From: Chiloscyllium plagiosum
Lineage: Eukaryota
Reading direction: 5' to 3'
Assembly: GCF_004010195.1 (NCBI RefSeq)
Contig: NC_057718.1
Location: 55,544,422-55,608,421, forward strand
DNA length: 64,000 nucleotides
Each line of letters starts with the position of its first letter. The first letter of the stretch is position 1. Under the pieces are notes generated by a model that searched no databases, was not told where the DNA came from, and saw nothing but the letters and a program-made list of their open reading frames with translations. Position numbers and translations under genes: made by a program. Shown one piece after another: positions 15,290 through 41,052 of this stretch.

Positions 15290-15480
15290 GCAAATGTGAG
15301 AACTGCAGATGCTGGAGATCAGAGTCAAGATTAGAGTGGTGCTGGAAAAGCACAGCAGGTCAGGCAGCATTCGAGGATTAGGAAAATCGATGTTTCGGGC
15401 AGGAGCCCTTCATCAGATTCCTGCTCCCCGGATGCTGCCTGACCTGCTGTGCTTTTCCAGCACCACTCTAATCTTGACTC
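15290..15480. mobile_element. Fold-back PLE pLTR insertion
   Basis: Perfect 49-bp inverted arms at 15322-15370 and 15432-15480; minus-strand hammerhead core at about 15385-15419. Confidence 0.85.
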
Positions 15481-15579
15481 AAATTAATATGTACCAGCCC
15501 AATTAAGGGGTGCTGGAAAGAAAATCAAATGTTCAAATTTAATTTAACAACATTCAATTAAAATGTCATTGTGTGAAGA

Positions 15580-16630
15580 TGATGCACTCCAGTCCCTGAC
15601 TGACCATGGAAGGCTTTGAGCATACCAGTAAACACTGCATGCGCCCTCTTCAAGGCTCCCTGAGTATGGATGTAACCATGGAAGAGGGGCAAGTAGTCAG
15701 ACAGAATGACCCCCTGAACCCTTCCTATATGGATCTCTTTATGCCTAAGTCCAGGAACAGAATCTGATAATTTGAAACAGGATAACTGTGATGAGGAAAA
15801 AGAAGAGGCAGACTAATTAAATATATATTTTGTTTGTCTTTACGAAAGAGGATACATGTAACTTTCCAAAGAACATTGGGAGGGGGGGGGCGTAGGAAAG
15901 AAATCAGCATTTGTAGGGAAGGGCAACTTTTTCACGCAGAGGGTGGTACGTGTATGGAATGAGCTGCCAGAGGAAGTGGTGGAGGCTGGTACAATTGCAA
16001 CATTTAAAAGGCATTTGGATGGGTATATGAATAGGAAGGGTTTGGAGGGATATGGGCCAGTGCTGGCAGGTGGGACTAGATTGGGTTTGGACTGAAGGGT
16101 CTGTTTCCATACTGTACATCTCTATGACTCAATGATGTCCAGGAAACTAGAAATTAAAGGCTGATAAGTCTCCAGGCCCTGATAATCTATATCCCACAGT
16201 ACTGGAGGAAATGGCCATAGAAATAGTGCATGTATTGGTGGATATCTTAGATTCTATAGACTCTGGAACAGGAGCTATGGATCAGAGGGTAGCTAATGTA
16301 GCCTCACTATTTAACAAAGGTTGAGAGAAAACAGGGTATTAGAGACCAGTTAGTATAGGGAAAATGCCAGAGGCCATTATAAAAGATTTATAACTGAATG
16401 CTCGTAAAATAGTAGCAGGTTTGGATGAAATCAGCCAGAATTTATAAGAAGGTTATGATGCTTGATAAACCTAATTTTTATGAAAAGTTATGGTGGACTT
16501 GACAAAGGGGAGCCAGTGTATATGGTTTACTTCGGCTATAAGAAAGTGTTTGTTAAGGTTTTACATTAGAGACTAGTATGTAAAATCAAAACATGTGGGA
16601 TTGGCAATAGTGGACTGAGATATATAGAGA
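15580..16630 (+). mobile_element. Decayed CR1 LINE with a nested younger CR1 tail (15910-16130)
   Basis: KSPGPD-like and RT remnants at 16165-16620; tail ctctatgactc at about 16130. Confidence 0.65.
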
Positions 16631-17392
16631 ACTACTTCCAAATGCTCTGCATGAGTTCAGTCAAGTGGTTTTCTTCCATTTACTGAATTTCTATTTCTAT
16701 CTAAACTTGTTTTTCTGTGTCAATCTGATAAGGATGTTGGTTTATTAGTTCTGACTCTGCTGTGTCCACATCATGCCTAGTAACATAGTACATCCAGGTG
16801 TATCTCTATAGATTATATCATACTTCCTCGGTCTTACAAGATCTTACAAGTTTCTCATATTGTCCTTTCTCTCATTATGAGAACACAGTAACTGTTCCAG
16901 TAGTTGTGTATTACCTAGTTGAACTGTAGGAGGTTCACTTTGAGAACTGTCTACTTCCCCTTCCACGTCAATCTCATTATCTCTGTTATCTTCTGCCTTA
17001 TCACCTGACACACTTGCTCATCCTTACCCTATTCCAAAGATAGTACCTTTTCAGCAGGCTTATACGGGATAACTAATTCTTCTTCCTACATTCAGGAGTA
17101 TTTATCAGAGAAGTCACTTTATTAACCCTTCTAGCTACTTTATATGGAATGCTGAATTTTGCTTTCAAAGGTTCACCTTATAAATGCTGCAAAACCAATA
17201 CTTCATTTTCCACTCTGAAACATACTTGTTGCTGAGTGTTTATCTGTCGTTTCATTTTCACCTGTGAAATGTTTAAATGTTCATGTGCTACCCTACATGC
17301 TCCTGTGAGTCTTTCTAGAAAAAGGGACATGTAATCCAACATTAAGGATTCACCTTTCTCATTCAAAAACACTTTTCTAATCAATTTTGATG

Positions 17393-37388: not shown

Positions 37389-38049
37389 GTAAGTCACCAT
37401 TTGCAGTCATTCTGGTGTGTTCAGCTTCGTGCAGTCTATGTATTATATCAATGAAATTATTTGACGGTATTATAAAATGGAAAGCAGTTTGAGACCTATG
37501 AATGTTATATTTATCTATGTAGAAATCCATAACTTTCTGCATATTTCTTGGTTCTCCTCAATATTTGATATAGCAGCAGAATTTCATAGTACATTGGATA
37601 GATTATTTCCTCCCACAGATATTTTTGTTTGATATTTTCCTGTTTACTGCACATTTTTTTCTGTTCCTATCTTGAAGATGTAAGCTGTGTTTGTGTGCAG
37701 TTTATTGGTGTCATCAAATGACCTGCATTTTATATGTTGATCATTGAATGAGCCTACTTGATCTTGAGAAGCACCACAGCCAAGTTCAACCCTGTGCTTG
37801 ACCAATAGTTACACGTGCACATCGGAACACAAGAAAGCATGCAGCCAGAAACAATAATTTGATGTATTAAGCCCAATTCTTTCATAGAATTGAACAACAT
37901 TTGATGTGACATAACATATACTGCTGAATAAATTTCCTAAAAATATTCAGGAAACGGTAGTTTCTGAAACCTAAAGGAAATAATGCACAACTCCAGAATA
38001 TTTATCTATACCCACAGATATTTCTATCCCTGCTTATCTCATAAGGGCA

Positions 38050-39100
38050 GATTCCTTGTGCTTAATTGTAGATGCAAGTATGGAAGCACTGCAGGGGATG
38101 AGGTCAAGGTGAAGTGTTTGGGGGTAGGTGCCTCTCTGGCCTGCAGCAGCCACTGGAAGCAGGACAAGATTCTTCAGAGCTGATTCATAGTGGAGGAATC
38201 ATCTGACTATGGGATTATAAATTTCAGACTTTGATTGACAAGGAGAATCGTACAGATAGAGGATGCAGCCAGATAGAACATCTGTGCATCAGCCAGGGGA
38301 GCTCCAACACTGAGAATATCTGGATGTGGAAGGCACTTGAAGGCAAGACTGTAGGCCCATGGCTATAGATGCACTATATGAGTAAAAGGTTTATGGTCAA
38401 AGACTTAACTTAATGGAAATGTCTGAGCACCAGTATCAGCAACAAGTTGGAGGTGGTGGTAGAACTGCATGCTATGTTGGAGCAGGATATGATGCCAACA
38501 GAAAGAGACGCACACTCAATGACTGTATCTCAAAAGGTACCTTTGGCACTCACCAGTTTTCCCTGTAATTTGTTCCAAGGATGGTGTAGAGATCTGTGCT
38601 GACTCTCTGTCAGCAACCCTTTGCTGCATAAAGGAGTTCATGGATGCCATGTCCCATGAGCAACATATCAAGTTTGCAACTGATCAGGTCCATTAGGTGT
38701 TGAGTGCAATTGGCCTAAGGACCATGATTGAATTTCAGCAAGTATATGGGAGTCATTGACTGTACTCATGTGGTCATCAAGACTCCTCTTAGAGCAGTGT
38801 GGCATCTTCATGAGCAGGAAGAGATTCCATTCCCTCAATAATTAAGTCATCTGCGATTTGCTGTAACTGAATCATGCAGGTATGCATACGATTTCTAGAA
38901 GTTGTAATGACTCCTACATTCTTAAATTATCCCAAACCCCTCAGCTGTCCCTCTACCAAATATGCTGGAGTTGAATGAGGGCACGTAAGTGAGCTGCATC
39001 CTTCGTGAAGAAGGATGAGCATGACATGCCTCAGGTGCTAATCAATTAGGATGGTCCCAAAAGGACCTAACTTTCTGGACCGTAATATGCCTTGCAGTGA
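38050..39100 (+). mobile_element. PIF/Harbinger transposase remnant
   Basis: GVIDCTHVVIKTP at about 38749-38787, then FMSRKRFHSLNI; matches the Harbinger DDE motif (IDCTH...NRKG.HS.N). Confidence 0.78.
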
Positions 39101-40885
39101 GACCCCAGATTCTCTGACTTGTTAAGGACAAATGCTGAAGGCTACCGAATTAAGATGTAGGGTGGAATTAAATATTACCTCCTACCCTCACTTACCCCAC
39201 CCCTTTAAGCCAACTTCCCCTACTCCCCACCTCCCTCACAGGAGTCACCCTGACTTGTCCCAGAGATCTTGCAGTCCTGCTTCACTCAGTTGTATTCCAG
39301 AGCTCCAATGACTATCTTCACCCTTGGGTCTTCTACCCGTGGCTATAGTTTGTGGTGCTATTGCTCTGACTTTGAAATTTTGCAGTCAATTCTCCTGCAG
39401 GAGCTGGGACCTCCAACAGCAGTCAACAGGCTGTCGGTTGGCACTTAACCAACTGGAGCCCCATCGGAAATATCAACAATAAGTTTAGCTCATTTTCTCC
39501 AAGAAGCAGTCTTGCTGACCTTTCCTGAGAGATCTTTACCATCTCTCTGTGTATCTGTGAGCATTATATGCCCAGGCATTTAACAAAAGTACTGAAGACA
39601 CCCTTTGTTGTACTTACCACCTCTCAATTTGATTTTGCATCTAGTCAGCATTATTAAATGTAGCATAAAAATAAATACAAAATAGTTACATATTGAGAGC
39701 TGAATTTAATTAATGACACCAGGAACAGGAAACGTGGGGGGCAGGATTAATTAATTATATGTGAGCTGAAACTTTGAAATTATGATAATGGGTGACAGTG
39801 ATAAGTCGGGCTTCATTCTGAACTGTAGCAAGTTTCTCATTGTAATCTATTTGCATTTCATGAATGTTAATTACCTTTAAAAGCTTTGAAATAAAGTCCT
39901 ACCTTCACAACAGTGATGTGTGAGTCCAGCATGGCTCTGCTTCACATTGGCTTGATGGTAGCATTCACTCAGTCAATTTTATTCAGATTGACTAAGGTGA
40001 ATGGTTGTTTTGACTAAACAAGGAAGGAGAATGGGAGAATTGCAGCATGAATGGAAGGTTCAGGAAAGGCACAGATGAGCTAGGTGTGAGAGGGAGTTTG
40101 ACATTTGGGCAGTGATGGACTGGAACAGGGCTTTTTGAGATGACATTGGATGGGGCCAGTGCACTGAAGTATTTACTGGGAATGGCTTAATATCTTGGGA
40201 GTGATCAGAATTAGGGTTGGAGGAGAGAGATGCAGCCTGTGAAGATAAATGGAACAAGAGGCTTAAAGGGTGGGATTAGCATAATCCAAAGTTGAGTCCT
40301 GTGGTCACATCCAGGATGCTAGCTGACTAAGGGTAAGTTTGTGTTCATCCAGAGGAGTCTGATTCACTGGAATGTGGTCAGGTCAGGTCTGAGGTTGGGA
40401 TGTTCAGAGGTCTTACAGGGAATACCATTGGAGACTCTAGGAATAATGTAGAGTGGTCTTTGATTAGAAGGGGAATTTTAACAATGGTGGGGTAGGCCAG
40501 GAGGAGCAAGAGCATGTCCAGTTCCATGACGATTATGTTCAGAGTGAAGGTGAGAGGTTCAAATGTTACAAGTAGAAAGTGCACAGTGATATTGTGAGGG
40601 TCGAGATGAAAAGGGACAAAGTTGAGGGTCATGAGAGAGGGATTGAATGTCATGGTTTACAATTTCTTAGTGCCACTTATATACTGTTACTGGCTATGTC
40701 CAAAACCAACTCATAGCTGCTTAAAGTAGAGGTCAAGGCAGAAGGAAGCCAGTATGGGATAGTTTGCGTTTTGAGTGTGGAGAATGGAAGGAGTAGTAAA
40801 TTCTAGAGCTCAAGAGGTCTATGCAGGAAAATGGTAGACACATGGGTTCTCATATTATTGTCTTCTTTTATACACAGTTCCTCGG

Positions 40886-41052
40886 AGAAAGTGAGATCTG
40901 CAGATGCTGGAGATCAGAGTCGAAAAATGTGGCGCTGGAAAAGCACAGCATGTCAGGCCACATTCCTGATGAAGGGCTTACGCATAAAACATGATTCCCC
41001 TGCTCCTCGGATGCTGCCTGACCTGTTGTGCTTTTCAGCACCACTTTTCAAC
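40886..41052. mobile_element. Fold-back family C pLTR insertion
   Basis: Inverted arms gctggaaaagcacagc / gttgtgcttttcagc; decayed core attc-CTGATGA-agggc at about 40962. Confidence 0.75.

Follow-up and report, generated by a model that had tools for sequence, protein, structure and literature searches.

Fold-back ends of Penelope-like elements in a Chiloscyllium plagiosum genomic window are probably independently formed insertion products

A 64,000-nucleotide stretch of the Chiloscyllium plagiosum genome (NCBI RefSeq assembly GCF_004010195.1, contig NC_057718.1, positions 55,544,422 to 55,608,421; hereafter the window, with coordinates counted from its first letter) contains seven short fold-back insertions in which two terminal segments (pseudo-long terminal repeats, pLTRs) of a Penelope-like element (PLE) lie head-to-head. 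Each unit is very probably the single, dead-on-arrival product of an ordinary endonuclease-positive (EN+) PLE, formed independently at its own site. The units represent the published 'inverted pLTR plus tail' type of PLE insertion and are neither retrozymes nor miniature transposable elements with inverted repeats (MITEs). These stubs are real and are mostly ordinary PLE debris; what stands out is the asymmetry of their arms and a pile-up of their 5′ ends close to the hammerhead ribozyme of the pLTR.

Six head-to-head units (at 15290, 18080, 19259, 19590, 32869 and 40886) had been listed in a sequence-only reading of the window, and all are present at those positions; a seventh, absent from that list, lies at 55433–55530. 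Inverted arms of 30–84 nt with 74–94% complementarity were found in five of the six listed units, and the short pair at 18080 by self-comparison. Three PLE families are represented: A by the units at 15290, 40886 and 55433 (units 1, 6 and 7), B by those at 19259, 19590 and 32869 (units 3, 4 and 5), and C by that at 18080 (unit 2). With the hammerhead strand taken as sense, the arrangement is head-to-head in all seven, with 5′ ends at the centre and arms reading outward (Table 1). The units have little or no coding sequence, as had been described, except that the long arm of unit 2 begins about 48 codons ahead of the stop codon that closes the family C frame. We note also older A-like pLTR fragments at 576–617 and 53041–53154, the 53-kb pair of which may be a decayed eighth fold-back.

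The units are flanked by target-site duplications (TSDs). Duplications of 9–12 bp had been claimed for four units; allowing one mismatch, we find them around five of the six listed units, at 11–13 bp, and also around unit 7. Unit 6 has no clear TSD and none above background, its best candidate being 8 bp with one mismatch. All six TSD-bearing units score at least 9, a value reached by none of 400 random position pairs, and each of these six therefore inserted as one piece, with one TSD around both arms; the suggestion that each arrived as a unit is thus borne out for them. The TSDs vary in length from 9 to 13 bp, and their sequences are unrelated to one another.

All seven fold-backs have a tail of 30–40 nt on one arm, while the other arm ends at the tail boundary. 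The window's eight single-arm copies terminate at one or other of these two points: the tail is present in four and missing from the other four. This architecture matches that published for PLE insertions, in which, in the accounts available, an inverted pLTR, a tail on one arm and a TSD of 9–10 bp are described and head-to-head is the commonest arrangement (PMC3846280), and in which an inverted truncated copy has likewise been reported beside the PLE 5′ end (PMC8557442; PMC2377424); the statement that PLE insertions often carry an inverted pLTR piece therefore agrees with the literature. The window's units have in common with EN+ PLE insertions the head-to-head arms, the 30–40-nt tail on one arm, TSDs of 9–13 bp, microhomology at the junction and a pLTR hammerhead. 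They differ in that both arms are cut to about 30–200 nt from the end and are almost pure pLTR.

A comparison of the centres shows that they are different in all seven units. Counted from hammerhead C3 (+1), and with a few values uncertain by several nucleotides, the paired break points of the two arms (Table 1 gives which is tail-bearing and which tail-less) are +1/+29, +50/−8 and +68/+68 in family A, −11/+3, −9/−11 and +42/+19 in family B, and +49/−128 in family C; the two neighbouring family B units 3 (−11/+3) and 4 (−9/−11) do indeed differ at the centre, as had been noticed. Exact overlap at the junction is 0–3 nt in the well-preserved units: 3 nt in unit 2 (7 of 8 if one mismatch is allowed), a 2-nt overlap of the arms in unit 3, and a blunt join in unit 4. 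A spliced exon at the junction was considered, the Drosophila virilis PLE intron being described as ending at helix I (PMC4209133, PMC2377424), and was rejected, as no extra letters are common to the centres.

We also compared the segment 18135–19352, which includes a tail-less family C arm and a tail-less family B arm, with four sequencing runs, the contigs coming from two organisms; joints were judged on 15 of 120, those listed, concern families B and C only, and exclude any with an arm past this segment. Summed contig depth is about 1–4 million on the arms and 6–21 on unique flank, a difference of about five orders that is not a true copy number. Among the listed joints, four join opposite strands, at depths of 20–59 (against about 2 million on the arms) and in 1–3 contigs each; none is a fold-back joint shared at high depth, and RNA reads occur at none of them. 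Family B ends are abundant: in run X1, 1,240 family B contigs (474 + 390 + 376) end at the tail boundary at 19257–59 with unrelated AT-rich flanks (agreement 0.34–0.35), and 1045 continue with a tail-like consensus at 19256; counts in run X11 are nearly equal. The family B pattern of two ends, with and without tail, is thus genome-wide, and no amplified centre is seen among the joints listed. The sequence-only reading had offered, as one option, a non-autonomous retrozyme-like or MITE-like class; as far as the window's centres and the listed joints go, that option fails by the reading's own criterion, since seven of seven centres differ and no high-depth shared joint is listed. Its other option, extreme truncation plus template-switch products, is supported in the form of 5′ truncation plus an inverted piece formed anew at each insertion, as the centres differ while single-arm and coding-linked copies end alike.

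The arms themselves provide clues to how the units formed. In four of the seven (units 2, 3, 5 and 6) the tail-less arm extends further 5′ than the tail-bearing arm, by about 175 nt in unit 2. Because the tail-less arm has this extra 5′ sequence and the tail is only on the other arm, two primings are needed in these units, and the asymmetry speaks for two distinct primings rather than for snap-back copying; units 1, 4 and 7 fit either. Sister arms have subfamily-specific letters in common in units 1, 5 and 7, which points to one source or to a subfamily dominant at the time. While the architecture and junctions are observed, a step with two nicks and two cDNAs is what we infer from them. The GIY-YIG endonuclease would nick both target strands 9–13 nt apart, as the TSDs suggest, and each nick would prime its own cDNA at one of two sites bracketing the tail, presumably one site per nick, giving one arm with the tail and another ending at the boundary; both cDNAs would stop early, be joined centre to centre through 0–3 nt of microhomology, and then be filled in. 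Were only one priming fixed, a single arm with or without tail would result, as is found in the window. For the anole PLE PAc, the available account reports that in vitro the protein cleaves each of the two target strands and extends it, that reverse transcription starts at two internal sites bracketing the tail, and that hammerhead cleavage is dispensable for insertion (PMC11167929). These features correspond to those proposed here, whereas the head-to-head unit from two primings and the 5′ stop at the hammerhead are what we infer beyond that account.

The minimal type I hammerhead (CUGANGA, stem II, GAAA-NN-UH) is present by pattern match in families A, B and C. The description of the units as ribozyme-bearing holds for units 1, 2, 3 and 4, each with an intact core in one arm, and not for units 5 and 6, in which the core is absent and broken, respectively; motif matching likewise finds no core in unit 7. 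PLE minimal hammerheads are described with a long helix II, a short helix I, a palindromic helix III (ACGU or AGCU) and an extra base past the core (PMC4209133), and these features are common to the fold-back units; unlike those hammerheads, the fold-back cores face opposite ways, so that no tandem dimer can form in cis, and most are mutated or sequestered. Structure prediction for units 3 and 4 places the core among the paired bases of the long hairpin, with a pairing probability of about 1.0 across most of CUGAUGA. An Rfam search of the units returned no match to a ribozyme family with E ≤ 1, minimal hammerheads going uncalled; on three units it gave weak matches to miRNA families and viral cis-elements, all under the gathering score. 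Hammerhead cleavage as the origin of the arm 5′ ends is rejected, since it fits only one of 22 arms. The hammerhead is probably a passenger of the pLTR and not a replication device of the stub. A TATA-like box (18208–18215) lies about 55 nt ahead of the family C hammerhead core, within the last codons of the frame, and the frame of the family C copy at 55575 ends inside hammerhead stem II.

The 5′ ends of family A and B arms pile up. Among the 18 arms of these families, seven stop downstream of the hammerhead 5′ edge and 11 reach it; nine of these 11 have their stop in a 14-nt zone, −11 to +3 (for three of them, of family B, it is at −11, −11 and −9), and the other two continue for hundreds of bases. 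Counted by insertions (7 of 9), with the background stop rate doubled and correction for 70 zone placements, P is about 0.016 (5e-8 counted by arms), for a zone picked post hoc and a sample of one window. The weak A-like fragments at 576–617, 53041–53097 and 53114–53154, the ends of which cannot be placed, were left out of the arm counts. Family C arms show no such pile-up (0 of 4). Contig loose ends at 19343–19344 (252–367 contigs) may be 5′ ends or subfamily divergence, and are not used in support.

A second relevant feature is a family B poly(A) signal (Table 1). In RNA run X21, poly-T loose ends occur at 19283 (574 reads) and 19286 (481 reads), corresponding to sense poly(A) 11–14 nt past the ATTAAA; X21 is a poly(A) single-cell library, blind to circles, and its 3,018 reads were placed at 80% likeness and derive from any genomic copy. 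The poly(A)-end reads may come from a few host genes using the family B signal. RNA run X22 has no reads on 18135–19352, and a search for RNA records covering 16200–22200 listed none, which says nothing about expression. Both poly(A) sites are upstream of both priming sites (about +84 and about +117), and together with the 5′ pile-up this suggests run-off copying near the RNA 5′ end. We therefore raise, tentatively and with considerable doubt, the idea that stub formation is programmed, as with retroviral strong-stop DNA: a unit-length RNA would be primed close to its 5′ end, and the copies would run off there. The PLE mRNA would start about 11 nt ahead of the hammerhead core and be polyadenylated within the 3′ pLTR (at +56/+59 in family B), so that intact priming sites would be present only near the RNA 5′ end; a dimeric reverse transcriptase (RT)-endonuclease would prime from both target nicks and run off after about 95–130 nt, the cDNAs being joined head-to-head, and full-length copies would need tandem read-through RNA. 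If true, this one scheme would account for tail and inversion alike, for the surplus of stubs made of pLTR only, and for why partial tandems are needed. The pile-up would also be compatible with pausing of the RT at the ribozyme or with a master RNA that is short and non-autonomous.

The suggestion that the fold-back itself is a replicating non-autonomous element, MITE-like or retrozyme-like, with a hairpin or circular RNA mobilised in trans by PLE protein, would agree with the arrival of each unit as one piece with its own TSD, with the proportion of fold-backs (seven of the 15 PLE-end insertions in the window), with the lack of a coding-linked family B copy there, with the reported ability of rotifer pLTRs alone to direct insertion in trans (PMC3846280), and with the few rearranged forms of raised depth. 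We nonetheless regard it as very unlikely, given seven different centres that include those of two close family B neighbours, no opposite-strand joint of high depth or with RNA reads among those listed, no head-to-tail array of PLE ends among the window's seven tandem-repeat rows, hammerheads in units 3 and 4 that are predicted to be locked in a long hairpin, and the single arm among 22 that starts at a cleavage site. It is scarcely credible that the units are pairs of separate opposite insertions, one into the other, or artefacts of assembly at palindromes: the anole endonuclease does cut its own pLTR in vitro (PMC11167929) and inverted repeats are hard to assemble, but one TSD surrounds both arms in six of seven units with no internal duplication seen at the centres, the arms differ from each other by 6–26%, and X1 contigs extend out of unique flanking sequence into units 2 and 3 (28 and 25 letters of the arm, under the 31-letter bridging rule).

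Self-priming, in which a single cDNA bends back at a small palindrome or microhomology to serve as its own template, as proposed for PLEs (PMC3846280), is a more specific competitor to two primings. It accords with the microhomology at most junctions, the near-perfect hairpin of unit 7, the nesting of the tail-less arm within the tail arm in units 1 and 4, and the letters common to sister arms in units 1, 5 and 7; yet in units 2, 3, 5 and 6 each arm holds sequence that the other lacks, and neither is a simple copy. These four units exclude it as the sole route, and it seems improbable overall, although units 1, 4 and 7 may still have arisen in this way. There is also a small chance that a short, SINE-like pLTR monomer RNA, starting just 5′ of the hammerhead, is the template mobilised in families A and B, with the fold-back still formed at each insertion. 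The stops of nine of 11 arms within −11 to +3, with the B arms at −11, −11 and −9, would be expected on this explanation, but the same pile-up is expected if a full-length mRNA starts there. Moreover, reads and contigs carry family B sequence further upstream, in forms common to a subfamily (loose ends at 19337, 19343 and 19344), a long family A copy exists at 5742–6662, and family C is without a pile-up (none of four arms). We thus favor the independent formation of each unit by an ordinary EN+ PLE, although several observations weigh against it. Random truncation leaves the 5′-end pile-up at −11 to +3 unexplained. The protein of the family C frame (P0001) matches GIY-YIG profiles only below cut-offs (Pfam E 0.14, NCBIfam E 0.0088) and has no significant match in PDB, and no coding-linked family B copy is present in the window. 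The census of junctions is limited to the window, and palindromes may interrupt Logan contigs. Depths of 281 (X11) and 90 and 52 (X1), 7–20 times single-copy, are seen for some rearranged family B forms, which, their strand not being given, were not counted as fold-back joints; there may have been limited re-amplification of such forms. One family B joint links 19290 to 19259 through four additional letters (depth 281 in X11 and 52 in X1) and may reflect a short tandem unit derived from the family B end.

MITEs are short non-coding hairpins with symmetric terminal inverted repeats, a TSD length fixed for the superfamily and many copies of the same length. The PLE units have asymmetric ends, with a tail on one end only; their TSDs vary from 9 to 13 bp and are of unrelated sequence, their centres vary (seven of seven differ, with no high-depth shared joint among those listed for families B and C, in what is a partial test of a shared interior), and their arms match retroelement 3′ ends. 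L1 twin priming provides a closer parallel, with two primings from opposite target strands, a join by microhomology and an inversion inside one TSD; the inverted piece of L1 is upstream sequence, whereas here both arms copy the same terminal segment, and two RNA copies or tandem pLTRs are therefore needed. Non-LTR retrozymes are described as head-to-tail tandem repeats with a hammerhead per unit, processed to monomer circles (PMC7229834; bioRxiv 10.64898/2026.07.22.740005). They are likewise short, non-coding, hammerhead-bearing and related to PLE pLTRs, and the fold-back units differ from them in being inverted pairs with at most one intact core each and variable ends. None of the seven tandem-repeat rows of the window overlaps a unit, and the arm boundaries fall at or near the cleavage site in one case of 22. 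As to circular RNA, the one informative RNA run is the poly(A) library, which is blind to circles; no joint with RNA reads occurs among the 15 of 120 listed. A literature search, with most subscription papers and Repbase outside it, returned nothing on shark PLE fold-back stubs or PLE twin priming.

The stubs form a natural record of the PLE insertion reaction, the inverted-repeat step of which is termed unresolved in the available text of the cited PLE papers: the arm asymmetry makes it possible to distinguish a double priming from snap-back copying, and the RNA may start where the 5′ ends pile up. The family B end acts as a portable poly(A) signal, and host genes may obtain poly(A) sites from this family. 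Hairpin stubs of this kind are easily mis-annotated as MITEs or microRNA hairpins.

Table 1. Fold-back units, single-arm PLE copies and associated features (window coordinates; arm starts relative to hammerhead C3 = +1)
Feature	Family	Position	Strand	Details
Unit 1	A	15276–15491
Unit 1 TSD		15276–86/15481–91
Unit 1 tail-bearing arm	A	15287–15416	−	start +1 (hammerhead C3)
Unit 1 tail-less arm	A	15417–15480	+	start ~+29 to +33, at or just past predicted cleavage site
Unit 1 hammerhead	A	15389–15416	−	CUGAUGA, stem II, GAAA-CA-UC; palindromic helix III altered
Unit 2	C	18068–18344
Unit 2 TSD		18068–79/18333–44		exact, 12 bp
Unit 2 tail-bearing arm	C	18080–18137	−	58 nt, without hammerhead; start +49
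Unit 2 tail-less arm	C	18135–18332	+	start −128, within reading frame
Unit 2 hammerhead	C	18263–18296	+	CUGAGGA...GAAA-CG-UU
Unit 3	B	19247–19480
Unit 3 TSD		19247–58/19469–80
Unit 3 tail-less arm	B	19259–19352	−	start −11
Unit 3 tail-bearing arm	B	19351–19468	+	start +3
Unit 3 hammerhead	B	19341–19313	−	in tail-less arm; core intact
Unit 4	B	19577–19820
Unit 4 TSD		19577–89/19808–20
Unit 4 tail-less arm	B	19590–19679	−	start −9
Unit 4 tail-bearing arm	B	19680–19807	+	start −11
Unit 4 hammerhead	B	19669	−	in tail-less arm; core intact; core of tail-bearing arm mutated
Unit 5	B, older subfamily	32856–33011
Unit 5 TSD		32856–68/32999–33011
Unit 5 tail-bearing arm	B, older subfamily	32869–32947	−	from ~+42
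Unit 5 tail-less arm	B, older subfamily	~32943–32998	+	from ~+19 to +23
Unit 6	A, decayed	40884–41052
Unit 6 tail-bearing arm	A, decayed	40884–40960	−	start ~+50
Unit 6 tail-less arm	A, decayed	40958–41052	+	start −8
Unit 6 hammerhead	A, decayed	40966		broken, GAAA lost
Unit 7	A subfamily	55424–55539		both arms from ~+68; tail on + arm
Unit 7 TSD		55424–32/55531–39		9–11 bp
Single arm with frame	C	55575–56532	+	RT C-terminal part and GIY-YIG endonuclease; ends at tail boundary
Second coding-linked single arm	C	4418–5283	+	tail-less; 93% identical to 55575 copy
Long single arm with tail	A	5742–6662	−	TSD 5730–41/6663–74; spans assembly gap 5996–6307
Single arm with tail	B	21977–22100	+	start −5; no TSD found
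Single arm with tail	A	42902–43011	+	from ~+39; exact 12 bp TSD
Single arm, tail-less	A	61288–61395	+	starts at hammerhead core, core intact; exact 10 bp TSD
Single arm, tail-less	A-like, older	36730–36869	+	start ~−2; 21 bp TSD, one mismatch
Single arm with pyrimidine-rich upstream sequence (5′ limit approximate)	A-like	14000–14234	+
Poly(A) signal	B	19283–19303	−	ATTAAA 19303–19298 (+39 to +44); poly(A) at 19286 (+56) and 19283 (+59); GU-rich stretch downstream

Only for family C is a coding partner found: the copy at 55575–56532 has an end to which unit 2 is 93% identical, and its frame carries RT C-terminal and GIY-YIG-type motifs and was placed by Atlas, at 0.97, beside eukaryotic HTH/GIY-YIG clusters. 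One frame of the long family A copy at 5742–6662 was scanned and contained no PLE domain. Among the 24 frames scanned, the only Pfam match is to RVT_1 (E 1e-15), at 2779–3249 on the minus strand. Assembly gaps (N runs) lie at 5996–6307, inside the long family A copy, and at 7941–8756. PLE insertions may cluster, the family A unit 7 lying about 40 nt from the start of the long family C copy (together 55433–56532), the family C copy that ends at 5283 about 460 nt from the family A copy at 5742, and units 3 and 4 about 110 nt apart.

As to the distribution of individual units, a 632-nt single-copy contig of organism B meets the window at the right flank of unit 2 only, its first 367 letters being unlike the unit, and the unit 2 site is thus probably empty in that organism. 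Unit 3 appears to be shared with organism B, with a match reaching 24 letters into the arm, below the 31-letter bridging rule. Exact-motif scans found no copies in viral contigs and none in metagenome contigs; in bacterial genomes they gave three Algoriphagus matches, which we take as chance.

Two other repeats in the window deserve mention. An AT-rich hairpin at 35486–35605, with 40-nt arms that are 98% complementary, is unrelated to PLE ends and is possibly a DNA-transposon MITE; it has a weak Rfam miRNA match under the gathering score. A perfect 30-bp tandem repeat of 3.2 copies is located at 25549–25645.

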